Source: Escherichia phage P88
Sequence record: NC_026014.1
DNA: 35,814 nt
Strand: one strand, 5' to 3'
Shown in pieces: positions 108-35,145 of the stretch (the stretch's first letter is position 1; each line of letters begins with the position of its first letter). The notes beneath the pieces are model-generated. The model was not told the DNA's origin. It ran no database searches and saw only the letters and a list, made by a program, of their open reading frames with translations. Made by a program: the position numbers and the translations under genes.

Positions 108-1139
108 TTATGGGCAATATCTGGACAACTCAGCCACAGGATTAAAGCGCACAGCATCCTGTAGATAATCCGGTGCAAAATGGGCATAAGTCATCGTCTG
201 CTGAATAGTGCTATGTCCAAGTATTCTCTGCAAAGTGATGATATTCCCACCATTAATCATGAAGTGAGTGGCAAAGGTATGCCGTAAAACATGTATCGAC
301 TGCCCTTCAGGAAGATCAGGCCTCACCTTTCTGATAGCAGCTCTGACAGCTGCATAACTTGGATAAATTAAACGACCAGTGGCCTTTGTTTTAATCATGC
401 ACTCCAGTTCTGACGATATAGGTATAACGCGACGCTTCCCATTTTTGGTTTCCATAAAAATGACTTTGCCGCTAATAACATGCTCCCCCTTGATATTTGC
501 AACCTCACTCCATCTTCCACCTGTTGCCAGACACAACAAGACGGCTTTTAATTCATCACCAGATAACAACTCCAGTAATCGTGGAATATCTTCATGATAC
601 AAATAAGCCATTTCAGGCTGTTTGATATTAAGTTTTTTCACATCATGAAACGGATTAGCCCCAGAATATTCCTCTGCGTCAATTAGTTTTGTGAAGAAAC
701 CACTCATCATTGCGCAATAACGATTAACCGTGGATTGTTTTATTCCGCGATTAAGCAACAATAACCGATAATTAATTATGTTCTTACGAGTAAGTTGGTC
801 ACTGCGTGTAACATTAATACTTTCAAGATCACTAATGACCGCAGAAATACGCACTCGCTCCATCGCACCGTAAGGATGATTTTTCCCGTGGTATAGCCAC
901 CAACAATCCAGCAACTCCCTCAGCGAGCGCCGTTCTGTTGGCTTATCAACCCAATCTTTGTCGTGGTAATGCTGCAATACATGACGCTCATACAAAACAG
1001 CCTCACCACGAGTATCAAATCGCCGCCTGAATCTCTTTCCTTCTGATCCAGCTGGCCGCACGTCCACACAAAATTTGCCATTAGCGAGCTTCTTAATCGA
1101 CATAAGGAAGCCCTCCAATGAAAACATCATCTTGATCAC
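108..1139 (-). CDS. int: Tyrosine site-specific integrase (P2 Int-like)
   Basis: 343 aa; C-terminal catalytic region HVLRHTFATHFMINGGNIITLQRILGHSTIQQTMTYAHF with the R..HxxR..Y tyrosine recombinase signature; sits next to the repressor as in P2. Confidence 0.95.
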   Translation of the reverse strand: MIKMMFSLEGFLMSIKKLANGKFCVDVRPAGSEGKRFRRRFDTRGEAVLYERHVLQHYHDKDWVDKPTERRSLRELLDCWWLYHGKNHPYGAMERVRISAVISDLESINVTRSDQLTRKNIINYRLLLLNRGIKQSTVNRYCAMMSGFFTKLIDAEEYSGANPFHDVKKLNIKQPEMAYLYHEDIPRLLELLSGDELKAVLLCLATGGRWSEVANIKGEHVISGKVIFMETKNGKRRVIPISSELECMIKTKATGRLIYPSYAAVRAAIRKVRPDLPEGQSIHVLRHTFATHFMINGGNIITLQRILGHSTIQQTMTYAHFAPDYLQDAVRFNPVAELSRYCP

Positions 1140-1169: not shown

Positions 1170-1469
1170 TTAACCAGTTTTCTTGCCGGAGCGGGATGAT
1201 TCCGCTTCGCCTTGCCCAATGTGTGCGAGAGCCGGTACAACCTGCCCGGCCTTGGGTTCAACTTCATCAAACAAAAACCAGTCGCGGTACTTACGGAACA
1301 TGGGGGCTTTCAGAAGCTTTTTTGTTGACTCAAGGTTGGGTTCATTTCGTCCTTGCTCATATTGCCTTAATGCAGCAAGAGTAAGCCCAGTAATCTCTGC
1401 CATTTTTTCTTGTGTAAGCATTTCTGACTTCCGCATGATGCGAATTTTCATAGCTACGGTAGTTGACAT
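1170..1469 (-). CDS. C: Immunity repressor, P2 C-like (HTH)
   Basis: 99 aa, same length as P2 C; HTH segment EKMAEITGLTLAALRQYEQGRNEP and C-terminal PALAHIGQ...SGKKTG recall P2 C; divergent from cox. Confidence 0.85.
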   Translation of the reverse strand: MSTTVAMKIRIMRKSEMLTQEKMAEITGLTLAALRQYEQGRNEPNLESTKKLLKAPMFRKYRDWFLFDEVEPKAGQVVPALAHIGQGEAESSRSGKKTG

Positions 1470-1577: not shown

Positions 1578-2003
1578 ATGCAAGAAAGCACTCAAAACGC
1601 GCCTGAGTCACTTTGCGGAACACGATGCGATCACCTGTCAGAAATGCCAGAAGGTGAGCATCAAAAAACAGGACGCAAAGCACGTGAACGTGAAGAAATT
1701 CGACTTTCAGAAAATCCCTCGCATCTCCTGTCAAAAGAAGGATTTGCGATGTATATCGGAAAGACCGTTGATGCCATCGTAAGCATGGCAAAAGCAGGAA
1801 AGCTACCTGCGGTGTATATGGCGGACCCTCTCAAGCCAGGCGGAAACGCTGAACTCTACATCAACAGAAAAGCGTGGGATGAAGCATGCGATCGCCTCAT
1901 CGAAAACGCACCTCAGGAATGGCACGACTGGGAAAACCGTCTGTTTTTGTTTAAGCCAACAAGTGGCAGACGAAACAGAAATATCAGCGGTAAAGCAGCA
2001 TAA
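1578..2003 (+). CDS. cox: Cox/Apl-like excisionase-regulator; N-terminal extent uncertain
   Basis: Conserved part (MYIGKTVDAIVSMAKAGKLPAVYMADP) starts at the internal ATG near 1749 (85 aa, AAGGA SD); the 1578 ATG has a GGAGGA SD but adds 57 non-conserved residues. Confidence 0.6.
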   Translation: MQESTQNAPESLCGTRCDHLSEMPEGEHQKTGRKAREREEIRLSENPSHLLSKEGFAMYIGKTVDAIVSMAKAGKLPAVYMADPLKPGGNAELYINRKAWDEACDRLIENAPQEWHDWENRLFLFKPTSGRRNRNISGKAA

Positions 2004-3887: not shown

Positions 3888-4087
3888 ACAAAAAGACCTG
3901 GTTTCGCGCATACATGTGGGCGCTGGTATGCGTCATCGTCTCTCTCATTCTGTATGCAGGACTACTCCCCCGAATGATTTCATCAGACAGCTCCTTCCTG
4001 GTATTGCTGGGCATTTTCATTGCCATGCTGTACCCGGCAGGCGTTGTTCGCCTTTTCAGTAAGTACATCAAGGAAATCAAACAATGA
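3884..4087 (+). CDS. Small two-TM membrane protein, likely partner of the downstream SPFH protein
   Basis: 67 aa with two hydrophobic helices (WALVCVIVSLILYAGLL and FLVLLGIFIAMLYPAGVV); stop overlaps the SPFH gene start. Confidence 0.6.
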   Translation: MNKKTWFRAYMWALVCVIVSLILYAGLLPRMISSDSSFLVLLGIFIAMLYPAGVVRLFSKYIKEIKQ

Positions 4088-4914
4088 AGAAATTCAAACT
4101 CTTTCAGATTCTCCCGCTTTTTGCCGCCATCCTGCTGGTTGGCTGCGATCGCGTTGAGCCAGGTAATGTGGGCATCAAAGTCAACAAGCTGGGCGACGAC
4201 AAAGGCGTTGGCGAAGTGGTTGGCGTTGGCCGCTACTGGACTGGCTGGAATACAGAGGTTTACATCTTCCCGACCTTCAAACAAATGAAGACCTACGATG
4301 AGCCGTTCAGCTTCCAGATGAGTGACGGCACAACCATCGGCTATCACATCGGCGTGGCTTACAAGGTTGATCCATCCAAAGTTACCACAGTGTTTCAGAC
4401 CTACCGCAAAGGCGTGGATGACATTACCGACACTGACCTGCGCCAGAAGATCGCCGATGCACTCAACCGACTGGCCAGCAAAATGACCACCGATAAGTTT
4501 ATCGACGGTGGTAAGTCTGAACTGCTGGATTCAGCACTTAAAGATATTCAGGAAGAGATGACCCCCATCGGCATTCAGGTCATGAGCCTCTCTTATGTCG
4601 GTAAACCGGAATATCCGCCAACCGTTATCGACAGCATTAACGCCAAAGTCACGGCAAACCAGAAAACCCTGCAACGCGAACAGGAAGTCAAGCAACGCGA
4701 AGCTGAAGCCAACATGTTGCGCGCAGAAGCTGCCGGACAGGCTGATGCCATTCGCACAAAAGCCCAGGCTGAAGCTGACGCCATTCGTTTACGCGGTGAA
4801 GCTCTGCGCCAGAATCCCGGCGTTATGGAGCTGGAAGCAATCAACAAATGGAACGGCACGCTGCCGCAATACATGACCAGCAATACTGCTGTTCCGTTTG
4901 TTCCGGTGAAGTAA
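4084..4914 (+). CDS. SPFH/Band-7 (stomatin/prohibitin/HflC-like) lipoprotein
   Basis: 276 aa; lipoprotein signal with lipobox LLVGC; SPFH-like core; Ala/Glu-rich C-terminal coiled coil typical of Band-7 proteins. Confidence 0.85.
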   Translation: MKKFKLFQILPLFAAILLVGCDRVEPGNVGIKVNKLGDDKGVGEVVGVGRYWTGWNTEVYIFPTFKQMKTYDEPFSFQMSDGTTIGYHIGVAYKVDPSKVTTVFQTYRKGVDDITDTDLRQKIADALNRLASKMTTDKFIDGGKSELLDSALKDIQEEMTPIGIQVMSLSYVGKPEYPPTVIDSINAKVTANQKTLQREQEVKQREAEANMLRAEAAGQADAIRTKAQAEADAIRLRGEALRQNPGVMELEAINKWNGTLPQYMTSNTAVPFVPVK

Positions 4915-5956: not shown

Positions 5957-8779
5957 ATGACGGCAGAGTACATCAGGGACTGGCAACAACCGCGCCACGC
6001 AGTGGGGCGTGAAGGAACGGGGATCCCCGCTCCTGAATCCGCGCTTTCCTCCTGGCTGGATGCCTACCGGGCAGAGAACGAGCGCCGCCAGGAAATGGCT
6101 GATGCGGCGTTCTCCGCCACGCCGCTGGGCAACCTGATTAATAAAAGCCTGGACGCACAGGAAAAACAGGACAAAACCATCACACTGGCAGGAGACGCCA
6201 GAAAACAGGCACGCGGCGCGGTGGATGAAGCCATGGCCTCGCTGCGCCTGCTGCCGTCCTATCTGCGCGATCCGCTTATTCGCCACCTCTCCTTCCTTCG
6301 CAAAAAACAGGAAGCCGATCGCCGGAAAGGCAAAAAGAGCTGGCAGGCGGAACGCTATGCACGCGGAACCCTGCGCAAAATATTCGAACGTCTGGATCGC
6401 ACTGACGGACGCTGGCTGACACCGGGTTATCGCTCCCTTGCCGGACGCGAACGCCTGGACGATTTGCTTTACCTGCCGCAGCTCAACAAACACCAGATAC
6501 AGACGCTGGCCACCATGACGGCAGCGATGTTCAGCAGCACCTTCGAAAAACTCTGCGATGGCTTTGGCGCGACTGATGGCGAACTGACCATGGATGTAAC
6601 GCTGAAGGCGTATCAGATGCTGGCCCGCATGGCGTTACACCTGCACGCTATGCCTCCACATTATGACGCACTGACAACAGACAAAGACCGGAGGAACGAA
6701 CCGGACACAGAGCTGCTGCCGGGCGCAATCCTTCGCCTGACCTGTGCGGAATGGTGGAAACGCAAACTGTGGCTGTTACGTTGCGAGTGGCGGGAAGAAC
6801 AACTCCGCGCCGCCTGTCTGGTTTCCAGAAAAACATCACCCTATCTGAGCCAGGACGCGTTAAGCGAGTTTCGCGCACACCGCGAGAAAACACGCGATTT
6901 CCTGAAAAGTTTCATGCTGGAAAATGAAGACGGGTTCACGATTGATCTCGAGACGGTGTATTACGCGGGAGTAAGTAACCCGGTTCACCGTAAGGCAGAA
7001 ATGATGGCCACCATGAAGGGGCTGGAACTTCTGGCCGAAGCCCGTGGCGACAGAGCGGTGTTTCTGACTGTCACCTGCCCGTCAAAATACCACGCAACAA
7101 CGGAGAACGGTCATCCGAATCCCAAATGGAACGGGGCCACCATGCGCGACTCCAGCGATTACCTGGTTAACACGTTTTTTGCGACGGTCCGCAAAAAACT
7201 GAACCGCGACGGTCTTCGCTGGTATGGCATCCGCACGGTGGAGCCTCACCATGACGGCACTGTGCACTGGCATATGATGGTCTTTGCACATCCGGACGAG
7301 ATTGAAACCATCGTGTCCCACGTCTGCGATATTGCCATTCAGGAAGACCGCCACGAGCTGGGCGATGATATTACTCCGCGTTTTAAAGCGGAGTACGTCG
7401 ACGGCTCAAAAGGCACGCCAACCAGCTACATCGCCACCTACATCGGAAAGAACCTGGACAGCCGCGCCGTGGATGGCATCGACCCGAAAACGGGCAAGCC
7501 ACGCGTTGACCACGAAACCGGAAAATCAATGGCCGAGAGCGTGGAGCGCGCCATCGGCTGGGCGCGCCTTCACCGGGTCCGCCAGTTCCAGTTCTTTGGC
7601 ATCCCCTCCCGTCAGGTGTGGCGTGAACTGCGCCGCCTTGCCAGCCAGATGGCACGCAACCCGGAAGGCCCGCAACGGCTGAAGGATGACGCAATGGATG
7701 CAGTGCTCGCTGCCGCTGATGCCGGGTGTTTTGCCTCCTACATTGAAAAACAGGGCGGCGTACTTGTTCCACGCCAGGACTACCTGATTCGCACCGCCTA
7801 CGACCTCGCAGATGAGCTGAACGATTACGGCGAACAGAGCGTACAGATTTACGGGATCTGGTCACCACTCATCGGGGAGTCTTCCCGTGTGTGCACACAT
7901 CCGGATAACTGGAAGCTGGTAAGACGTAAACCGGAAGCGGAAGACAGCGCCCGCGAAAATGGTTTTGACCTTCAGGGCGGCCCTGCCGCCCCTTGGACTC
8001 GTGGCAATAACTGTCCCCGTGTACAGGAAACGGACAACAACGGGACAGAACAGCCGGAAGAACGGCCAGCACCGTGGCCGCAGCTCCCTGACGGCGTTGA
8101 AGTGAACGAATGGATGCGCTCACTGAAACGGCACGAACGCCGGGCGCTGATGCGTTCGCTTCGTGACAAACAGGCAAAAAACAGCAGTGATGAAATGCAG
8201 AGCTGGACACAGAGCCGCAAACAGCAGCGGCCTTTGCCTGATAACCACGAATTACTCGCTAAAGAATGGCGGGAGTCTGCTGAATCTCTCGGCCTGCATA
8301 TCGGTGAACAACAGATGCAGCACCTGTTACGGGGCGGCAGTCTGTACGTTGACGGCAGCATCATTGCACCGCAGGGATTTGAAATTGTACGCAAACCGGA
8401 TACCCGCCCGGACAGCCGAATCACGCAGCTCTGGCAGCGCCTGAGCCGTAATCATGGCGTAAGCAGCACGGAGATCCGCCATAACCCGGTCGCCAGCTAT
8501 CTGGCACAGCTGGGGGCATCAGACCCTGAAGCCGCCGCACGCCTGGCATCCACACTTCAGCAGGACCAGAACACCATGAAAACACCCGTTACCGTGCTTT
8601 CTGACATGCTGCGCGCCATCCGCGACGCAGAGCACGCACAGAGAATCAGTGAAACCACTGAACGCGCCAGCCGCAAAGCAGACCTGCTGCGGGGTGGCCT
8701 GACCAGTGGAAACAAAAAACAGACAGAAACGGGACTCACGAATCCCGCAAATGAGCAAAAAACGCGCAGCGATATATGA
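5957..8779 (+). CDS. A: Rolling-circle replication initiator endonuclease (P2 gpA-like)
   Basis: 940 aa; HUH-type motif DGTVHWHMMVFAH and twin-tyrosine motif TPTSYIATYIGKN; long low-complexity C-terminal extension versus P2 A (761 aa). Confidence 0.9.
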   Translation: MTAEYIRDWQQPRHAVGREGTGIPAPESALSSWLDAYRAENERRQEMADAAFSATPLGNLINKSLDAQEKQDKTITLAGDARKQARGAVDEAMASLRLLPSYLRDPLIRHLSFLRKKQEADRRKGKKSWQAERYARGTLRKIFERLDRTDGRWLTPGYRSLAGRERLDDLLYLPQLNKHQIQTLATMTAAMFSSTFEKLCDGFGATDGELTMDVTLKAYQMLARMALHLHAMPPHYDALTTDKDRRNEPDTELLPGAILRLTCAEWWKRKLWLLRCEWREEQLRAACLVSRKTSPYLSQDALSEFRAHREKTRDFLKSFMLENEDGFTIDLETVYYAGVSNPVHRKAEMMATMKGLELLAEARGDRAVFLTVTCPSKYHATTENGHPNPKWNGATMRDSSDYLVNTFFATVRKKLNRDGLRWYGIRTVEPHHDGTVHWHMMVFAHPDEIETIVSHVCDIAIQEDRHELGDDITPRFKAEYVDGSKGTPTSYIATYIGKNLDSRAVDGIDPKTGKPRVDHETGKSMAESVERAIGWARLHRVRQFQFFGIPSRQVWRELRRLASQMARNPEGPQRLKDDAMDAVLAAADAGCFASYIEKQGGVLVPRQDYLIRTAYDLADELNDYGEQSVQIYGIWSPLIGESSRVCTHPDNWKLVRRKPEAEDSARENGFDLQGGPAAPWTRGNNCPRVQETDNNGTEQPEERPAPWPQLPDGVEVNEWMRSLKRHERRALMRSLRDKQAKNSSDEMQSWTQSRKQQRPLPDNHELLAKEWRESAESLGLHIGEQQMQHLLRGGSLYVDGSIIAPQGFEIVRKPDTRPDSRITQLWQRLSRNHGVSSTEIRHNPVASYLAQLGASDPEAAARLASTLQQDQNTMKTPVTVLSDMLRAIRDAEHAQRISETTERASRKADLLRGGLTSGNKKQTETGLTNPANEQKTRSDI

Positions 8780-8824
8780 AGCGCGCACAAAACAGGCAAA
8801 AACGGGATTTCAGAATCCCGTAAA
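8727..8824. promoter_or_regulatory. Two related palindromic sites upstream of parM (candidate parC-like centromere/operator)
   Basis: AAACGGGACTCACGAATCCCGCAAA and AAACGGGATTTCAGAATCCCGTAAA, each with CGGGA(T)/(A)TCCCG arms, about 70 bp apart, overlapping the 3' end of A. Confidence 0.3.
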
Positions 8825-8855
8825 CGATTAATTAATCAACATAAGGAAAAGCGAC

Positions 8856-9815
8856 ATGAAAATTTGTATCGACGACGGCTCCACCAACATCAAGCTGGCA
8901 TGGACTGAGAACGGCGAACGCCGCAACGCCATCAGCCCGAACAGCTTCAAGTCGGAATGGTCTGCGCCGTTCGGCGGCACGCAGCCCGCGAACTACATGC
9001 TTGATGGCGTGCGCTATGGTTTTGATCCGGTCAGCGATCGCTTTGTCCAGACGACCGACACGCAATACCAGTACAGCGATGTAAATGTCATTGCCATTCA
9101 TCACGCGCTGGTCAAATCAGGCATCACGCCACAGGAGGTGGATGTGGTTGTCACCCTGCCACTGAGCGAGTATTTCGACACAAACGCACAGCCGGACATG
9201 GCCAACATCAACCGCAAAAAAGCGAACGTTATGCGCCCGGTGGAGTACCAGAACGGCGAAGCATTCACTATCCGTAACGTGCGGGTTATGCCTGAATCCA
9301 TTCCGGCTGGCTTTAAAGCACTGGCTGACATGAGTCCGTTTGAATCCCTGCTGATTGTGGATTTAGGTGGAACCACGCTGGATGTGGCAAAGGTTCAGGG
9401 ACAACTGGCAGGTATCAGCCAGGTGTTTTGCGATCCACACGTAGGCGTTTCCCTGATGGCCGATGCAGTACTGTCGGTGATGGCCACTAACGGTATGCGT
9501 ACCAGTCACCACATCGCCAATACCATTATCGAACATCGCCATGATGAAGCCTGGCTGCGCCAGCACATCCACAATGACGCGCATTACGCCAGCCTGATGG
9601 CGGTTATTCGTGAAAAGGAAGAAACACTGAAACAACGCGTGATCCGCGCGCTGGCGGGTTTTTCGGGTTACGGGCGGGTGATGGTTGTCGGTGGCGGGGC
9701 GGAGATTGTGGCACCCGCTATCCGCGAAGCCTGCGGAGTTAATGCGACTTTCATCGCGGACGGGGTGCCACAGTTTGCTCTGGTTAATGGGCTGTACGCA
9801 ATGGACAAGGAGTAA
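8856..9815 (+). CDS. parM: ParM/StbA-like actin-type ATPase (type II partition motor)
   Basis: 319 aa; N-terminus MKICIDDGSTNIKLAW...ISPNSFKSEW co-linear with plasmid R1 ParM (MLVFIDDGSTNIKLQW...ISPNSFKREW, from memory); also QYSDVNV, IVDLGGTTLDV, VMVVGGGAE. Confidence 0.9.
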   Translation: MKICIDDGSTNIKLAWTENGERRNAISPNSFKSEWSAPFGGTQPANYMLDGVRYGFDPVSDRFVQTTDTQYQYSDVNVIAIHHALVKSGITPQEVDVVVTLPLSEYFDTNAQPDMANINRKKANVMRPVEYQNGEAFTIRNVRVMPESIPAGFKALADMSPFESLLIVDLGGTTLDVAKVQGQLAGISQVFCDPHVGVSLMADAVLSVMATNGMRTSHHIANTIIEHRHDEAWLRQHIHNDAHYASLMAVIREKEETLKQRVIRALAGFSGYGRVMVVGGGAEIVAPAIREACGVNATFIADGVPQFALVNGLYAMDKE

Positions 9816-9819
9816 ACCA

Positions 9820-10131
9820 ATGACGACACCAACCAGACGGATAAGTTTCTATCTGAAGCCCGCCGCCGTCAAGAACGAAGGCGAAGCATGCGCCTGGCTG
9901 GACAGCCTTACACCAGAAGCCCGCAAAAGCGGCCAACGTGTGGCTTTTCTGGCCGGGCTGGCACTTCTGAAAATGAATCCGGCAGAGGCTTACCGACTGG
10001 CTGCATGGGCTGACGATGAGGCGTTATCAGTGACACAAACCAGGACAGAACGCCCCGCGTCACAGCCAGTACCAACCACACAGATAACCAGTCGGATGGC
10101 CGGAAATATCAGGGCGTTATTTCCCGAATAA
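9820..10131 (+). CDS. parR: ParR/StbB-like centromere-binding adaptor
   Basis: 103 aa from the ATG 4 nt after the parM stop; RRISFYLKP...LDSLTP...RVAFLAGLALLKMNP parallels R1 ParR (RRTIAFKLNP...LDSIPQ...AALTAGLALYRQDP, from memory). Confidence 0.7.
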   Translation: MTTPTRRISFYLKPAAVKNEGEACAWLDSLTPEARKSGQRVAFLAGLALLKMNPAEAYRLAAWADDEALSVTQTRTERPASQPVPTTQITSRMAGNIRALFPE

Positions 10132-10194
10132 CACAACATCAGGGCGCATCCGCCCTGATGACTTTAATCCGGGAACATAAACAAGGGGGACACA

Positions 10195-10527
10195 ATGCAA
10201 CACATTGACAGAGAAAAAGCGCAGCGACTGATTGAGCGGATGGAAGCGCTGGCGAAAGAAGAAAATGTCAACATCCAAAAAATAGCTGAATGTGGCCAGA
10301 TAGTTCTTCGTCGTGAAAAAGACCTCAAACAACTGATGTCTGGCGAAACCAGCAAAACATGGACTTCAGGCGAGGAGACGATTTATTGCAGCTTCTGCAA
10401 TAAATCTCAGTACGAAGTCACAAAGGTGATTGCCGGACCGTCTGTTTACATCTGCAATGAGTGCGTGGATTTGTGCAATGAAATTATCAGGAGAGAAGTG
10501 ACAGACAAAAAGGGAAAAAACGCATGA
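10195..10527 (+). CDS. Small protein with C-terminal ClpX-type C4 zinc-binding domain
   Basis: 110 aa; C-terminal [39 protein letters not shown] has the C-x2-C-x18-C-x2-C spacing and roughly 80% identity to the E. coli ClpX N-domain as I recall it; no AAA+ module. Confidence 0.8.
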
Positions 10528-10862
10528 ACAGAAAACAAAAACAAGAGTTGAAATACTTTTTACGTAAAGAAATTGCCAGGCTTGAAGATGCAGAATCACA
10601 ATCATCAGAAATTCCGTTCGGAATGGATATCAACGACGCCCGTATGCTCCAGGCATACCGCATAGCTCAGGCTGCACTACAGGCAAAACCGTCAGATGGA
10701 CTGGTTAGAGCAGTACGATTCTATGAACTGGTAAAGCGTGAGAATCCGCCAGCCGAAACCGGAGCATGGAAAGACGCTGTTGACTGGGTACTCAAAGAGG
10801 CTTGTCAGGTTGTAAACACTGGCATCAAAGGAGACCTAGCCCAGCCTGCATCAAAGCTATAG
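10524..10862 (+). CDS. Hypothetical protein, last gene of the cargo cluster
   Basis: 112-aa ORF overlapping the previous stop; followed by a terminator. Confidence 0.55.
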
Positions 10863-11353: not shown

Positions 11354-12400
11354 TCAGGATGTGGGCTGGGTATCTAACAGTGCGTAAGGGTTAAAGCGGA
11401 TCACCTCTTCGCCAAGCCAGTCATTGATGTGCTTCATGGCCTCCATGACGGGCATCAGCTCGTTAATTGCGTAAACCCGCGCGGCCTTCTCCACATCACC
11501 AAACGCACTTTTTTCGCCCGGCATCGCCCCCATCAGTTGCGGCGGAACGCGGTGCGCAGCCAGCACATCATCACGGGATGCCGCCTTAACATTCATGAAC
11601 TCATCCTTTGCGGTGATCTGCTGGAACGGCAAAATTTGCACCCCCTCTTTGCCCCCGTTGGGCGCATGAATGAGCACGTTTTTAAACGCACCACCACCAC
11701 GTGCCCCCTGTAGCGTTTCTTTCAGGGAGTCCATGCTTTCGCGGTTTACCTGCGCTGCACCGATGTAGATGATGCACCCGGCGTGGGATCCGTTGTCGTA
11801 GTACAGTTTTCTGAACATGTCCGCCGAATGAGAAAGGCTGGCCGAGAGTAATGCGCCAAGATATTCCGGCATGCCGTAGATTTCCTGGTTAATATCCGGA
11901 TTCATCAGGTGGCACACTTTGCCAGGACGAAACTGAAACGCGTCCTTGCCATCCTGCACATACCACCATGATTCAAGATCGCTTCCGCGTCGCATGTATT
12001 TCGCCAGGGCGTGCCGTAATTTAAGCGGTTCGCCGAGCATATTGCTCCGAAGCTCAAGGAATGCGTTACCGAACACAAACCAGTCCAGCGCCAGCGCCGA
12101 GAAATCCTGCCGGGAAAGCAGCGGGTGCGGAATATAGCAGCCGAGCAATACATTGCGCTTAAAGTAAAGCGCAGACTGATGCCAGGACGTTTGCCGGGCA
12201 GCTCTTGCCAGACCGTACCAGTCCACCGGGGTTTCATACCACCGCCCGTTATCAGCACAGTACATATTGTCCAGCAGGTCATGCCCGGTCAGGCGATAAG
12301 GCCCATCAAATGTGAATGCACTGAGCGATGATTCTTTCCTGAGCGCATCAGCGAGATCAATGCGTGAACTCATGCGCACTTTTTTATTTTTTCTGCTCAT
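11354..12400 (-). CDS. Q: Portal protein (P2 gpQ-like)
   Basis: 348 aa, P2 Q-like size; divergent from the O-N-M-L operon and immediately downstream of P, as in P2. Confidence 0.93.
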   Translation of the reverse strand: MSRKNKKVRMSSRIDLADALRKESSLSAFTFDGPYRLTGHDLLDNMYCADNGRWYETPVDWYGLARAARQTSWHQSALYFKRNVLLGCYIPHPLLSRQDFSALALDWFVFGNAFLELRSNMLGEPLKLRHALAKYMRRGSDLESWWYVQDGKDAFQFRPGKVCHLMNPDINQEIYGMPEYLGALLSASLSHSADMFRKLYYDNGSHAGCIIYIGAAQVNRESMDSLKETLQGARGGGAFKNVLIHAPNGGKEGVQILPFQQITAKDEFMNVKAASRDDVLAAHRVPPQLMGAMPGEKSAFGDVEKAARVYAINELMPVMEAMKHINDWLGEEVIRFNPYALLDTQPTS

Positions 12401-14151
12401 CAGAACTCCATAACCGTGAAACGCTCGTTTTCTCCTTCGCCGCCAATCGGTTCGTTAATGACAGCAAGCATGGTTGCCCACGCAAGGTCACCGTGGCTGA
12501 TCCCCCTCGCTCGGTCCGTTTCGTAAGTGATAAAGCCGCCCGGTGTTTTCACCTTACGCACGGCGTTAAAGGCCGCGACCAGCTCGCGTTCGGCACGATC
12601 GTATTCCCACCGCCCGGCACGCATTATTTGCAGCATTTTCAGTACCAGCGACCGTTTTGATGACAGCGTGAAGGTGTACGGAATAGCAGCAGGGAAAAAC
12701 CGTTTCACTATCTGATAAACGGCATCCCCGTGCCCGCCAGTCGCATCAATGCCGATGTGTTCCACGTTGTAGCGACACGTGAACTCTTCAATGACTCTGG
12801 CCTGTTCTTCAAACTCCAGCCCCTGAACGCGTCGCGTCTCCACCGTTCGAAAACGGCCACCAGGAACAGCCGGAGGAACCACCACGGACACCGCGCCGCT
12901 GTCGCCGTTTCCACTGCTGCCGTTTGCGTCATACCCAATCCATACCGGACGATTCCCCATCGGGCGGGGAGCAAAAGGTTTCCAGTCTTTCCAGTCGTCG
13001 TATCCATCAACACCGCAGCCAATCAGGATATTCAGGTTAAATGCCGATTCCCCTTCGCGGACAAACTCACACATATAGAGATTGCGGAACTCGTCTTCGG
13101 TGTTTTCATCACGAATTTCATCAATATCGGTGTGTTTCCAGCCGTGATTAACCACATCTTCCAGCGTGACAATTTGCCGCCACGTCCGGTCGGGGCAGAT
13201 AAGTCCGTTATGCAGCGTTTTCCAGCCCACAGAAAAACGCTGGCGTTTATGCGCGGCCTTTTTCTCGTTCCAGCGGTCGCCGTTCCAATAGACGTATGCC
13301 TCGTGCGTTTCGGTGGATGGCGTGGAGAAGTAGGTGCGCCGCAGTCCGCTGAGGGTTGCCATAGCGCCAGCCACCTTGCGCAGTTCAGCAAAGCGACTGA
13401 CCCAGAAAAATTCATCAAAATAAAAATTGCCTGTGTAGGACTGTGCCGTCGCAGCAGAAGTACCGAGAAAATGCAGTTCTGCGCCGTTGGAGAGGATGAT
13501 TTTATCGCCCCCTTTCAGCTCCACATCAACTTCAGCCGCGGCCTTCTGAATAATGCTTTTAAACTGGAACGCCTGACGACGCGACGCAGACAAAAAAATC
13601 TGGTTACGCTGGTAAGGTTGTGCCACATCGTCACGCAGCGCCATCAGCAGTGCTTCCTGTGCAAAATACCAGGTCGCCCCAATCTGTCGGGATTTCAGGA
13701 TCATCCTGTTACGTATCCCGGCTTCACTGCAAAGGGTCAGGGAGTCAAACCAGCCCCGCTGATGCCACTCCAGCCTGCTGATGATTTTTTCCCGCAGTGC
13801 GGCAATCTGCTCCGGCGTGAAATGATTTTTAAGTTTTTTTGCCCGGCCTTTCTTTCCTGTGGCCGTCGCATCCGGCTGGCCATCATGCAGTTTTTTAAGC
13901 TGCCGGGTCAGCAGGTCTATTTCCTTAAAGTCACCACCTGTTTTATTCTGTTTTTCAGTAAGCTGGATGAGGCGCGCATCGATGGACTGCGTGACACGCT
14001 GCACGGGTGGCGTTTCATCCCACTGGTCGCGTTTTTTCCACGCATAAATCGTGTTCGGGTTTATTCCCATCAGACGTGATATTTCTGCGGGCGGATAACC
14101 CTGCCAGTAAAGTTGCCGCGCACGCTGGCGCACAAAAGCGTCCTGAATCAT
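12400..14151 (-). CDS. P: Terminase large (ATPase) subunit (P2 gpP-like)
   Basis: 583 aa; N-terminal MIQDAFVRQRARQLYWQGYPPAEISRLMGINPNTIYAWKKRDQWDE HTH-like start typical of P2 P; overlaps Q by 1 nt. Confidence 0.93.
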   Translation of the reverse strand: MIQDAFVRQRARQLYWQGYPPAEISRLMGINPNTIYAWKKRDQWDETPPVQRVTQSIDARLIQLTEKQNKTGGDFKEIDLLTRQLKKLHDGQPDATATGKKGRAKKLKNHFTPEQIAALREKIISRLEWHQRGWFDSLTLCSEAGIRNRMILKSRQIGATWYFAQEALLMALRDDVAQPYQRNQIFLSASRRQAFQFKSIIQKAAAEVDVELKGGDKIILSNGAELHFLGTSAATAQSYTGNFYFDEFFWVSRFAELRKVAGAMATLSGLRRTYFSTPSTETHEAYVYWNGDRWNEKKAAHKRQRFSVGWKTLHNGLICPDRTWRQIVTLEDVVNHGWKHTDIDEIRDENTEDEFRNLYMCEFVREGESAFNLNILIGCGVDGYDDWKDWKPFAPRPMGNRPVWIGYDANGSSGNGDSGAVSVVVPPAVPGGRFRTVETRRVQGLEFEEQARVIEEFTCRYNVEHIGIDATGGHGDAVYQIVKRFFPAAIPYTFTLSSKRSLVLKMLQIMRAGRWEYDRAERELVAAFNAVRKVKTPGGFITYETDRARGISHGDLAWATMLAVINEPIGGEGENERFTVMEF

Positions 14152-24859: not shown

Positions 24860-25387
24860 ATGCAGCATTTAAAAAATATTAAGTCTGGAAATCCAAAAAC
24901 AAAAGAACAATATCAGCTAACAAAGAATTTTGATGTTATCTGGTTATGGTCCGAAGACGGAAAAAACTGGTATGAGGAAGTGAAAAACTTTCAGCCAGAC
25001 ACAATAAAGATTGTTTACGATGCAAATAATATTATTGTCGCCATCACCAAAGATGCCTCCACGCTTAACCCTGAAGGTTATAGCGTCGTTGAGGTTCCTG
25101 ATATTACAGCTAATCGTCGTGCTGATGATTCCGGTAAGTGGATGTTTAAGGACGGAGCTGTGGTTAAACGGATTTATACGGCAGACGAGCAACAACAACA
25201 GGCCGAATCACAAAAGGCCGCGTTACTTTCCGAAGCAGAAAACGTTATTCAGCCACTGGAACGCGCTGTCAGGCTGAATATGGCGACGGATGAGGAACGC
25301 GCACGACTGGAGTCATGGGAACGCTATAGTGTTCTGGTCAGCCGTGTGGATACGGCAAATCCTGAATGGCCACAAAAGCCTGAATAA
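24860..25387 (+). CDS. G: Tail fibre assembly chaperone (P2 gpG-like)
   Basis: 175 aa immediately after H; N-terminal [24 protein letters not shown]... of the Tfa family. Confidence 0.9.
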
Positions 25388-25415
25388 AAATTAAGGCCCG
25401 ATAGCGGGCCTTGTT

Positions 25416-25949
25416 TCATTCTGGTTGTTCTGGAAACGTTACTGGCAGGCTGGAGGTGTCTGTGGATTCGACCTTCTGCGCATAGAGCATCCACTCGGTT
25501 AATTTTTGTTTATTCTCGTCGGGAATGATACCCAGCCGTAGCTGTGAGTCCCATAGCTGGGTTTTATCCCTGACAAGTTGCAACAGGCTTTGCTTTTCAT
25601 TCTCTGCCTGCTGCCTCTGTTCCTCCTCGGTATAAGTTCGCTTTATCACTACGCCATCTTTGAACATCCATTTACCCGAAATATCAGCCCGGCGATTTGC
25701 TGTAATATCAGGTAATTCAACGACGCTTGCGCCTTCCGGATTAATTGCTGAAACATCCTTTTCAATACAAATAATAACGCCGTTATGGTCATAGACCATT
25801 TTCAAAGTGTCTGGCTGGAAATTCTTTTGTTCCTCATACCAGTTTTTTCCATCATCTGAATAAAGCCATTTGATGTTAAATTGCTTTGTTAGCTGGTATT
25901 GCTCTTTTGTTTTAGGGTTGCCAGCAGTAATGTTTTTTAAGTGCATCAT
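25416..25949 (-). CDS. Alternative tail fibre assembly chaperone (G')
   Basis: 177 aa; N-terminal half almost identical to G, divergent C-terminal half; convergent with G. Confidence 0.9.
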   Translation of the reverse strand: MMHLKNITAGNPKTKEQYQLTKQFNIKWLYSDDGKNWYEEQKNFQPDTLKMVYDHNGVIICIEKDVSAINPEGASVVELPDITANRRADISGKWMFKDGVVIKRTYTEEEQRQQAENEKQSLLQLVRDKTQLWDSQLRLGIIPDENKQKLTEWMLYAQKVESTDTSSLPVTFPEQPE

Positions 25950-25951
25950 CG

Positions 25952-26914
25952 TTAAATACTCCCCGCGTTATACCACGTCCCATTAATGCAATACTGAATT
26001 GGCCTTGCCTGAGTTGTATCAATTAATTCATCACGGTTTCCGTTAACTGAACCCGTAACGACATAACCTGACCTGTCAGACCAGCCGGGGCCATTCCATG
26101 TCTGAACAGATGACAGACCGCCAAGGCGAATACCTGTAATAAACCTTGAGTTACATTCTGCCTGCGTGTATGCACCAACATCTCCCGCAGAGGGTTTGCG
26201 GGTCGTGGTGTAAAACTCTGACCAGTCAGCCTCAAATCCATAACCATCACGCGCTGAACGATAAAAAATACCGCCGTTCCTGTAATTCACGCGGAACTGT
26301 ACAGCAGGGCAGCTCCCCGTATTCATATTGAAGTGGAGGATTAATGTCGATGCGCCACCAATGTTTGCGTTATAGACCCCGCTATTCCAGTTCCAGCCAA
26401 CAGCTTTATCATTTCCGACAGTGCTTCCTGTTTGCCCTAAAGCAAATGCAGGTTGTTGATTTTTCGTGTTGTAGTCTCGTCGCCAGCCAGGAGCATAAGC
26501 ATCACCATGATTAATATAAGTGAATTGAGCGTTAGTAATTCCGCCACCGCTGGACGTGCTCGGCGTGGTAACGCGTATGGTCATTGCGCCGCGAGTGCCA
26601 ATAACTTCCACCACAGCACCTGCAAGACAAATATTTCCGCAACCTGTATCTGTAATGACCTTATTATTTGCATAAGCCCATGAGCCTTTGCACATCCAGT
26701 AAGGATGGTTAAATGCTCCCTGACTCTCCAGCCACGAAATAAATTGCGCGGTTGTCCAGACCTGACTATCGCCACCAATATTCAGCCATGCGCTATATGC
26801 GCGGCAGGCCCCAATATTTTTGGTGAAGGTATCTTTTCCCGGAATATCTGCGCCGTTCTGGTTTTTCTGTAATGCGCCAGAAGCCTGATTTACCGTTTCC
26901 TGTAAACCGAGGTT
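25952..26914 (-). other. Alternative tail-fibre C-terminal segment (Hv'), start-less, fused to H after inversion
   Basis: Minus-strand frame is open from the right crossover site; my translation reads NLGLQETVNQASGALQKNQNG... across the site, matching H at YLGLQETVNRAGNAVQKNG; ends ...RPIQYCINGTWYNAGSI like H. Confidence 0.75.
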
Positions 26915-26922
26915 TTAGATAA
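26897..26922. repeat. Right crossover site of the invertible segment (gix/hix/cix-like, 26 bp)
   Basis: TTCCTGTAAACCGAGGTTTTAGATAA, about 55 bp upstream of the invertase start; close to the Gin/Hin site consensus as I recall it. Confidence 0.75.
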
Positions 26923-26976
26923 TGGCCGTTTCTGACCTGCATGGCATGATTTACGCTTTTGGACGGGAGATTCAGC

Positions 26977-27564
26977 GTGCTGATTGGCTATGTAAGGGTA
27001 TCAACAAATGACCAGAATACAGACCTGCAACGAAACGCTCTTGTTTGTGCAGGATGTGAACAAATATTTGAAGATAAATTAAGCGGGACAAAGACAGACC
27101 GACCGGGATTAAAACGCGCTTTAAAGCGCCTTCAAAAAGGTGACACGCTGGTTGTCTGGAAACTGGATCGCCTCGGGCGAAGCATGAAACATCTGATTTC
27201 TCTCGTCGGGGAACTACGGGAGCGAGGGATTAATTTTCGCAGTCTGACCGACAGCATAGATACATCTTCTCCAATGGGGCGTTTTTTCTTCCACGTGATG
27301 GGTGCCCTGGCTGAAATGGAACGTGAATTAATTGTTGAACGTACACTGGCCGGACTGGCAGCAGCGCGCGCACGGGGGCGCACAGGCGGACGTCGCCCGA
27401 AGCTGACAAAAGAACAGCATGAGCAAATAGCAAGGCTGATTAAAAACGGTCACGACAGAAAACAACTGGCAATAATTTACGGCATTGGTACATCGACGAT
27501 TTATCGTTACCACCCCGCAGGAGAATCAAGCGGAACAATAGAGAAGAGTCAGAAAACAAAATAA
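26977..27564 (+). CDS. Serine DNA invertase (Gin/Cin/Pin/Hin family)
   Basis: From the GTG start the product begins MLIGYVRVSTNDQNTDLQRNAL... (catalytic Ser in VRVSTNDQ), near-identical to the Gin/Pin N-terminus as I recall; C-terminal HTH. The track ORF starts at a TTG at 26959. Confidence 0.9.
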   Translation: MLIGYVRVSTNDQNTDLQRNALVCAGCEQIFEDKLSGTKTDRPGLKRALKRLQKGDTLVVWKLDRLGRSMKHLISLVGELRERGINFRSLTDSIDTSSPMGRFFFHVMGALAEMERELIVERTLAGLAAARARGRTGGRRPKLTKEQHEQIARLIKNGHDRKQLAIIYGIGTSTIYRYHPAGESSGTIEKSQKTK

Positions 27565-34475: not shown

Positions 34476-34736
34476 ATGTTCCGTTGTCCGCTTTGTGGCG
34501 CATCTGCCCGTATCCGCACCAGTCGTCCGGAAAATGATTCAAACACCGTGCGGCAAAAGTATTACCAGTGTAACAACCTGGAATGCGGCGTATGCTTCTC
34601 AACACTGGAAGCTTTCCATAAATTTACATCGAAACACGCCTCCGGCGTTCACTCATCAGAAGGTATCCCATGGCATGATCTGCCAGCTTCACACAGGGGA
34701 AACAATCAGATGAGTTTGCCTTTACCTCAGAATTAA
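34476..34736 (+). CDS. ogr: Late transcription activator Ogr/Delta family (zinc finger)
   Basis: N-terminus MFRCPLCGASARIRTSR...YYQCNNLECGVCF matches P2 Ogr (MFHCPLCQHAAHARTSR...YHQCQNVNC...) with the C-x2-C ... C-x4-C pattern. Confidence 0.88.
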   Translation: MFRCPLCGASARIRTSRPENDSNTVRQKYYQCNNLECGVCFSTLEAFHKFTSKHASGVHSSEGIPWHDLPASHRGNNQMSLPLPQN

Positions 34737-34927: not shown

Positions 34928-35068
34928 ATGTCGCAAAAATCGCTTACGGCCATCACGTTCTGCGTGACGGTAATCCTCATCATCTGGATGCTGCACGGTT
35001 CGCTGTGTGAAATACGGATGAGCTTTTGGGGAGCGGAGTTTGCGGCGTTCTTACAGTGTAAGCAGTAA
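34928..35068 (+). CDS. Hok/Gef-family type I toxin (46 aa)
   Basis: My translation: MSQKSLTAITFCVTVILIIWMLHGSLCEIRMSFWGAEFAAFLQCKQ; one TM helix then the LCE(I/V)R...E(V/F)AAF motif of Hok/Gef; AAGGAG SD 8 nt upstream; below the ORF-track cutoff. Confidence 0.7.
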   Translation: MSQKSLTAITFCVTVILIIWMLHGSLCEIRMSFWGAEFAAFLQCKQ

Positions 35069-35145
35069 GGAAACCGCGACGGGGGAGCAATCCCCCGTCA
35101 ATCGGTTGCTAAGGTTGGCTGAAGTGGCACCCTATCTCTCAGACA

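Follow-up and report, generated by a model that had tools for sequence, protein, structure and literature searches.

A ParMRC-type segregation cassette beside the replication gene of an integrating P2-like prophage

The 35,814-nucleotide (nt) stretch of DNA analyzed here, referred to at its full length as the window, is recorded as Escherichia phage P88 (NC_026014.1) and is a P88-like prophage (Xuanwuvirus, Peduoviridae). Directly behind its replication gene A the window carries parM and parR, which encode an actin-like segregation ATPase and a short adaptor protein. On balance, these genes probably make up a functional type II (ParMRC-type) segregation cassette that sits in the backbone of one P2-like phage clade and acts on free phage circles, not in routine plasmid lysogeny. 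A preliminary description of the window, made without database searches, had pointed to a ParM homologue and a ParR-like adaptor after gene A, preceded by two palindromes that could form a centromere, and had suggested either an extrachromosomal lifestyle alongside integration or reuse of the filament system for another purpose such as defense. Both protein assignments were upheld by the database comparisons given below. The features on which the argument depends are as follows.

5957 to 8779, plus strand: gene A, P2-type rolling-circle replication endonuclease, 940 amino acids (Pfam Phage_GPA; E value, 1.2e−128; PHROG 91, "nicking at origin of replication")
8713 to 8754, plus strand: repeat unit 1, 42 nt, an A-tract and palindrome within gene A at its 3′ end; first candidate site for ParR binding
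8730 to 8747, no strand assigned: palindrome 1, CGGGACT-CACG-AATCCCG (CGGGACTCACGAATCCCG); population consensus, CGGGATT-CACA-AATCCCG
8786 to 8827, plus strand: repeat unit 2, also 42 nt, located in the 76 bp between A and parM; second candidate site for ParR binding, or an operator
8803 to 8820, no strand assigned: palindrome 2, CGGGATT-TCAG-AATCCCG (CGGGATTTCAGAATCCCG), whose 7-bp arms are perfect and whose 4-nt spacer varies
8856 to 10131, plus strand: parM and parR together, co-oriented with gene A and starting after a 76-bp gap
8856 to 9815, plus strand: parM, actin-like segregation ATPase, 319 amino acids (Pfam, PHROG, PDB search, and alignment)
9820 to 10131, plus strand: parR, short StbB-family adaptor, 103 amino acids (Pfam PF10784 and PHROG 2515)

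The ParM and ParR proteins

ParM matched the Pfam StbA_N domain (E value, 1.8e−82) and the ParM C-terminal domain (E value, 1.3e−68), fell into PHROG 691 ("partition protein"), and aligned over its whole length (residues 2 to 316) with ParM of plasmid R1 (PDB 1MWK; E value, 9e−93). Global identity to the R1 protein was 47% (148/316), and pairwise alignment found R1 residues D6, D7, G8, S9, T10, K13, E148, and D170, together with the DLGGTTLD and GGGA motifs, to be identical in the window ParM. The nucleotide-binding and hydrolysis residues were also invariant across the alignment of the phage ParM clade described below. The gene was intact in 77 of 77 related loci and is under purifying selection, with a ratio of nonsynonymous to synonymous substitution rates (dN/dS) of 0.05; over most phage records and IMG/VR loci, ParM amino acid identity was at least 99%.

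The start of parR was placed at the ATG at 9820, which has an AAGGAG ribosome-binding site ahead of it, and not at the TTG at 9685. Its product covered 71 of the 72 positions of the Pfam model Plasmid_stab_B (PF10784; positions 1 to 71; E value, 1.6e−24) and was assigned to PHROG 2515. Searched against the PDB as a lone sequence, ParR returned chance antibody matches only, and a profile was needed to go further; the profile built from 18 phage ParRs had pB171 ParR/StbB (2JD3) as its top PDB match (E value, 0.0023; residues 9 to 74). Searches of plasmids by tblastn with ParR recovered phage-derived copies only, because plasmid ParRs are too diverged for BLAST. An AlphaFold2 monomer of ParR, computed from the 18-sequence alignment, had a pLDDT (predicted local distance difference test) score of 55 and an unmodeled N terminus. 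Overall, the comparison with R1-type ParM and ParR that the preliminary description had called for gave significant similarity, to the R1/pB171 type II family.

In ParR, a variable linker lies between the RRISFYLKP strand at the N terminus and the NIRALFPE motif at the C terminus. Alignment with plasmid ParRs revealed a common N-terminal strand, the helices following it, and the C-terminal motif (compare NIKNLFPDDE and NAENMFGDD), and there is positive sequence evidence that the protein encoded directly downstream of parM is an adaptor with a putative ribbon-helix-helix DNA-binding domain at its N terminus. The C-terminal motif, N-I-[RQ]-x-[LFM]-F-P, was invariant in the 18 phage ParRs and is a candidate ParM-binding tail; in R1, it is the C-terminal tail of ParR that binds ParM (PDB 4A62). 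For the whole of parR, dN/dS was 0.24, with values of 0.13 for the N-terminal domain, 0.41 for the linker, and 0.02 for the C-terminal motif.

ParR occurred in dozens of variants, comprising at least two old allele classes of ∼52% identity, beside a near-constant ParM. The window protein belongs to the commoner class, to which the P88 allele class is 52% identical. The first 18 residues and the C-terminal motif were conserved across alleles, and recombination has left a break near codon 18. Similarity to the P88 class at the DNA level ended ∼55 nt into parR, and thus the recombination boundary between constant backbone and variable hotspot appears to lie inside parR.

The arrangement resembles ParMRC (StbAB) of R1/NR1 and par2 of pB171, in which parM is likewise followed by parR and repeats lie directly upstream of parM. 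An N-x-x-x-[LM]-F motif at the C terminus is common to plasmid ParRs and the window ParR, although the plasmid proteins are 113 to 141 amino acids long and that of the window has 103. The replicon of R1 and pB171 is a plasmid, whereas that of the window is an integrating P2-like phage, and the phage ParMs group apart in a clade of their own. Escherichia phage D6, a P1-like plasmid prophage, is likewise a tailed temperate phage with a homologous cassette (ParM, 48% identity; StbB-type ParR), and the GenBank note on D6 StbA cites similarity to P88 StbA. D6, however, is a 91-kb plasmid prophage with several TCTCA-type iterons in about 270 bp of noncoding DNA, whereas the window phage integrates. 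The cassettes of P88, phiSM, and other Xuanwuvirus phages represent the same module (95 to 100% DNA identity), with nothing essential different. As judged from its proteins (ParM family, catalytic residues, and ParR family by sequence), the cassette is a type II ParMRC member, the cis elements of which deviate from the plasmid norm.

Palindromic sites and operon context

The two palindromic sites that had been noticed ahead of the genes are present and locus specific, the first of them lying within the last codons of gene A (stop codon, 8777 to 8779) and not in intergenic DNA; repeat unit 1 lies within the last ∼65 nt of A. Repeat units 1 and 2 are direct repeats of 79% identity with a spacing of 73 bp. 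The pattern CGGGA-N4-10-TCCCG was found three times in the window against an expectation of 0.22, a count that none of 100 shuffles reached, and the fuller consensus CGGGATT-N4-AATCCCG with at most one mismatch identified just palindromes 1 and 2. Both palindromes accompanied parMR in all 75 related loci analyzed, at fixed positions of −126 and −53 from the parM start, and no others were present in the related loci fetched. None was found near the end of the A gene in phage P2, which has no parMR, as the preliminary description had held for the canonical phage. The consensus over the 75 loci was AAACGGGATT-N4-AATCCCGTAAA; the arms were mostly kept and the 4-nt spacer varied, with a nucleotide diversity of 0.11 to 0.25 in the spacers (0.25 in palindrome 2, the arms of which had 0.04).

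Repeats were also identified upstream of parM in related phages of other genera. The Plesiomonas phage, whose ParM is 63% identical to that of the window, carries two 26-nt direct repeats (GCGGGACAACA...CCC) placed 72 bp apart, the first within the 3′ end of A. Phages from Serratia, Enterobacter, and Hafnia have inverted repeats with GGGAAC or GGGATT upstream of parM. This repeat architecture agrees with the near-identical N-terminal strands of the corresponding ParRs.

Two further structures were recorded around the palindromes. A short GC hairpin (GCGC...GCGC) at 8764 to 8784 lies between them, around the stop codon of gene A, and in an RNA fold of 8700 to 8860 the two palindromes were also able to pair with each other.

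The cis elements differ from those of the plasmid systems in several respects. The plasmid and D6 parC regions examined are AT rich, 150 to 300 bp long, and contain several short iterons, whereas the phage has two 18-bp palindromes and a 76-bp gap of ordinary GC content. The plasmid iteron array surrounds a promoter; in the window, one site is inside the coding sequence of gene A and no consensus promoter was found, so that a crude consensus scan gave no sign of the autoregulated promoter that type II systems have inside parC. The same scan, which could miss a weak promoter, identified neither a plus-strand terminator nor a σ70 consensus promoter between A and parM. In relatives, the only σ70 matches upstream of parM were ones overlapping its start codon. 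It appears that parMR continues the early operon, co-oriented with A, and would be cotranscribed with it. By comparison, the lysogenic-conversion genes in the A-to-Q slot of P2 (tin and old) lie on the opposite strand and have their own promoter, unlike parMR.

P2-like prophages from four other genera (Plesiomonas, Hafnia, Serratia, and Enterobacter), whose ParMs are 54 to 63% identical to the window protein, had the same gene order: A, parM, parR, variable cargo, and then (ogr,) Q and P. With the window included, parMR occupies the A-to-Q slot of P2-like prophages of five genera. The cargo behind parR differs by phage and may be a ClpX-zinc-finger protein, HicAB, a KAP NTPase, or hypothetical genes. 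In a neighbor-joining tree of 109 ParMs, the proteins from a phage context formed a single clade of 16 leaves, which contained neither R1 nor D6 nor any ParM whose plasmid or integrative and conjugative element context was checked. A scan of genome contigs yielded about four loci of the phage clade; the remaining matches were of ≤53% identity and are presumably plasmid-type ParMs.

Replicon location, proposed role, and competing explanations

The module was present in 1,304 of 5,426 complete Escherichia coli genomes (about a quarter), and all but two of its 1,452 copies in these genomes (1,450) were chromosomal. About 11% of the carrier genomes had two or three copies of the module with the same sites. 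PLSDB held seven records with the module, five of which were very large replicons with an inserted phage and one a partial linear fragment. The seventh, NZ_CP148288.1 from cat isolate Z1323PEC0009, is a 34.4-kb circle that consists of phage only, integrase included. A 25-kb stretch of it is 100% identical to an integrated prophage (NZ_CP148378.1) of human isolate Z1323HEC0067 from the same study. This circle could be an episome or, equally, excised replicating phage DNA that was assembled separately, as spontaneous induction can yield a circular contig.

The window itself has the integrase of a P2-like element, as previously described, together with a C-type repressor and cox. These genes and the chromosomal counts do not describe an extrachromosomal lysogen, and no match to a Rep3-, RepA-, or RepB-type plasmid initiator was obtained among the part of the window open reading frames (ORFs) scanned with Pfam; the sole replication gene found was that for the P2-type rolling-circle endonuclease A. 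The extrachromosomal phage-plasmid lifestyle that the preliminary description had raised was not what the public genomes displayed when integrated and episomal copies were counted.

The cassette is common and has already been annotated (RefSeq names, "plasmid segregation protein ParM" and "plasmid partitioning/stability family protein") and discussed in print. Rousset et al. (2022), surveying the A-to-Q slot in E. coli P2-like prophages, remarked on the partition genes and put forward an episomal state; Pfeifer et al. (2020) also noted partition genes and suggested an episomal state for P88. Thus, both the observation in the preliminary description and its main hypothesis were already published. 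Magaziner et al. (2019) listed the partition gene of phiSM as fitness cargo. The episomal interpretation is a reasonable guess, one that the public genomes do not favor as the usual state. New here are the purifying selection, the presence of parMR in the same slot of four other genera with a ParM clade of their own, and the co-orientation with A.

In the mechanism that we propose, ParR dimers would bind both palindromes, which are in phase and lie to either side of the end of gene A. The 73-bp spacing corresponds to about seven helical turns and so would place both sites on the same face of the helix. The conserved C-terminal tail of ParR would then capture the ends of ParM filaments, and ATP-driven polymerization of ParM would push apart the DNA circles that bear the sites. 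Since the module adjoins the replication gene in the early operon and lysogens are almost always integrated, it may act on the free phage circle, whether in the interval from injection to integration or, once the phage has excised, while A drives replication. P2-type rolling-circle replication driven by A yields monomeric circles, which are also the packaging substrate. We infer from these features not only the binding of the palindromes by ParR but also the timing and the benefit of the activity; the likely job would be to disperse or position phage circles and probably not to maintain a stable plasmid prophage. A bolder version, which we put forward only tentatively, is that one integrating P2-like clade has long passed ParMRC on by vertical inheritance as a core function, and that ParMRC positions the monomeric rolling-circle products or the incoming circle by means of a minimal two-palindrome centromere located partly within the replication gene; a plasmid system would in this way have been turned into a device of the lytic or establishment phase.

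The best functional analogue for this proposed role would be AlpAC of the Corynebacterium glutamicum prophage CGP3, in which, as in the window, an actin-like ATPase and a DNA-binding adaptor (AlpC and AlpA) belong to an integrated prophage. AlpAC shows early induction, and the circular phage DNA depends on it for efficient replication after excision (PMC4446434); its adaptor binds sites upstream of its own operon (PMC4446434, PMC5539076). The function of AlpAC has been demonstrated experimentally, whereas the window module is known from its sequence; the CGP3 host is a Gram-positive actinobacterium, and the phage type and replication system are different. AlpC was absent from the matches of the sequence searches run with the window ParM, no direct comparison of the two having been made.

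Several points weigh against a segregation cassette acting on free circles through these two sites. At the shallow depth of these loci, the nucleotide diversity of the palindrome arms, 0.04 to 0.05, was not below that of third codon positions or synonymous sites of parM (0.055), and arm conservation therefore cannot serve as proof of constraint. One arm position was mismatched in 16 of 48 haplotypes, the window among them (8735C). There are only two candidate sites, compared with about 10 iterons in R1 parC, and the region has a GC content of 49%, whereas the plasmid parC regions examined are long and AT rich (27 to 35% GC). E. coli-type ParR lacks a helical segment that was present in every other ParR compared, and this might affect higher-order assembly. 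Cotranscription of A and parMR is deduced from a crude consensus scan, one circular phage-only record exists (NZ_CP148288.1), and no functional study of this module was found in the literature.

That ParMRC instead maintains the phage as a low-copy episome where it does not integrate (e.g., in hosts lacking attB), so that the phage would be a facultative plasmid prophage, we regard as unlikely. Besides the proposals of Rousset et al. (2022) and, for P88, of Pfeifer et al. (2020), the phage-only circle with its integrase would fit such a state, as would a Plesiomonas relative on a phage-sized contig of 32 kb and the service that a homologous cassette renders to the P1-like plasmid prophage D6. 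The chromosomal location of nearly every copy argues the other way, as do the integrase, repressor, and cox genes, the failure to find a plasmid-type initiator among the Pfam-scanned ORFs, and the P2 rolling-circle type of A. In P2, A is expressed from the early promoter, which is shut off by the C repressor in lysogens; with A driven from a C-repressed promoter, a repressed episome would therefore have no obvious route of replication. The two or three same-site copies often seen in one carrier would be incompatible if episomal, and a circular contig can come from spontaneous induction.

Three other explanations bear on the sites and on the genes themselves. It is quite improbable that the palindromes are not a centromere and act as RNA or terminator hairpins (e.g., stopping antisense transcription) or as an intercistronic structure, with ParR binding elsewhere or serving only in regulation. 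Both palindromes do score as minus-strand intrinsic terminators, each stem being followed by a T-run, and the fold of the 161-nt region has a z-score of −3.5 relative to shuffles. Two haplotypes have changes that would suit a fold, one a TA-to-CG double change linking the two sites (site 1, right arm; site 2, left arm; n = 1) and the other a GC-to-AT change between the outer arms. However, changes were mostly one-sided and many of them break pairs, 8735C being an example; the Plesiomonas repeats hold the direct-repeat sequence with a stem of only 3 to 4 bp; no minus-strand gene was identified for the hairpins to terminate; Rfam gave no match; and no plus-strand T-run was present. Very improbable, in our view, is that parMR is accessory cargo of the A-to-Q hotspot, serving either as a prophage-expressed device for defense, exclusion, or incompatibility or as a "fitness" gene of the host. 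The slot is the P2 A-to-Q hotspot, which is rich in antiphage systems; the phiSM gene was listed as fitness cargo, and parR has strong allelic diversity with its recombination break near codon 18. Yet no match came from PADLOC for ParM, ParR, or either of the two ORFs that follow, and parMR forms the constant portion of this slot, beside A in five genera, while the genes after parR vary, so that the reuse for defense contemplated in the preliminary description found no backing. The single phage ParM clade fits vertical inheritance better than repeated capture, and the early-operon orientation is unlike that of tin and old in P2. Scarcely credible is the idea that parMR is a relic in decay, left over from an earlier plasmid stage and now without function. 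The minimal candidate centromere and a ParR shortened relative to plasmid ParRs might suggest one, but this reading is contradicted by the selection data (the intact parM and its low dN/dS, and the value for the ParR C-terminal motif), and the cassette has been kept in phages whose ParMs have diverged to 54 to 63% identity.

If positioning of circles proves true, the idea of cytoskeleton-assisted phage replication derived from AlpAC of CGP3 would extend to the P2 family, and a very small natural type II centromere would become available for study. If an episomal state proves true, P88-like phages would have a dual lifestyle, which bears on prophage detection and spread.

Neighboring genes and other features of the window

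The remaining features of the element are listed below.

108 to 1139, minus strand: integrase (feature table of the window)
1170 to 1469, minus strand: C-type repressor
1578 to 2003, plus strand: cox
Up to 8779, plus strand: early genes, then gene A
10137 to 10160, no strand assigned: perfect 10-bp GC-rich hairpin right behind the parR stop codon (inverted-repeat and terminator scans)
10195 to 10527, plus strand: ClpX-zinc-finger protein
10524 to 10862, plus strand: small ORF
11354 to 14151, minus strand: portal Q and terminase P
Up to about 34735: head, tail, and lysis genes of P2 type, then ogr

The hairpin at 10137 to 10160 probably marks the end of the module; in the terminator scan it was terminator-like on the minus strand. 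The two ORFs after parR (10195 to 10862) are variable hotspot cargo, in place of which relatives hold HicAB or a KAP NTPase. The protein encoded at 10195 to 10527 (110 amino acids) consists almost entirely of a C4 zinc finger of the ClpX type (Pfam zf-C4_ClpX; E value, 8e−18), and the ORF at 10524 to 10862 (112 amino acids), which overlaps the zinc-finger gene, matched PHROGs of unknown function.

Twelve phage records, among them P88 derivatives, Xuanwuvirus P884B11, and Citrobacter phage phiSM, were 95 to 98% identical to the window over the parMR region. A prophage of E. coli ETEC1738 was identical (100%) over the 1.5-kb query; by whole-window BLAST its core was 98.3% identical, and its early and cargo regions were different.

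In the early operon, between MarR-like and Ash-like genes, 4084 to 4914 encodes an SPFH/Band 7 family protein of 276 amino acids (Pfam E value, 5.7e−31). This gene was not at the corresponding place in the two relatives compared (ETEC1738 and pZ1323PEC0009-2). Farther downstream, two convergent tail-fiber assembly genes (24860 to 25387, plus strand, and 25416 to 25949, minus strand) lie near an inverted C-terminal part of a tail-fiber gene (25952 to 26695, minus strand) and a serine invertase gene (26959 to 27564; Resolvase and HTH_7 domains). The stretch from 24860 to 27564 resembles the invertible host-range segments of the Mu G or P1 C type.

Between its gpD-like gene and ogr, the ETEC1738 prophage carries a His-Xaa-Ser radical-SAM system (hxsABCD; 35398 to 38795 of that locus), an insertion that the window does not have. 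Downstream of ogr (34477 to 34735) in the window, a small ORF at 34929 to 35069 (MSQKSLTAITFCVTVILIIWMLHG...) resembles a Hok/Gef-type toxin, and the ETEC1738 prophage has an annotated Hok/Gef gene in the equivalent position (39499 to 39639 of the locus).

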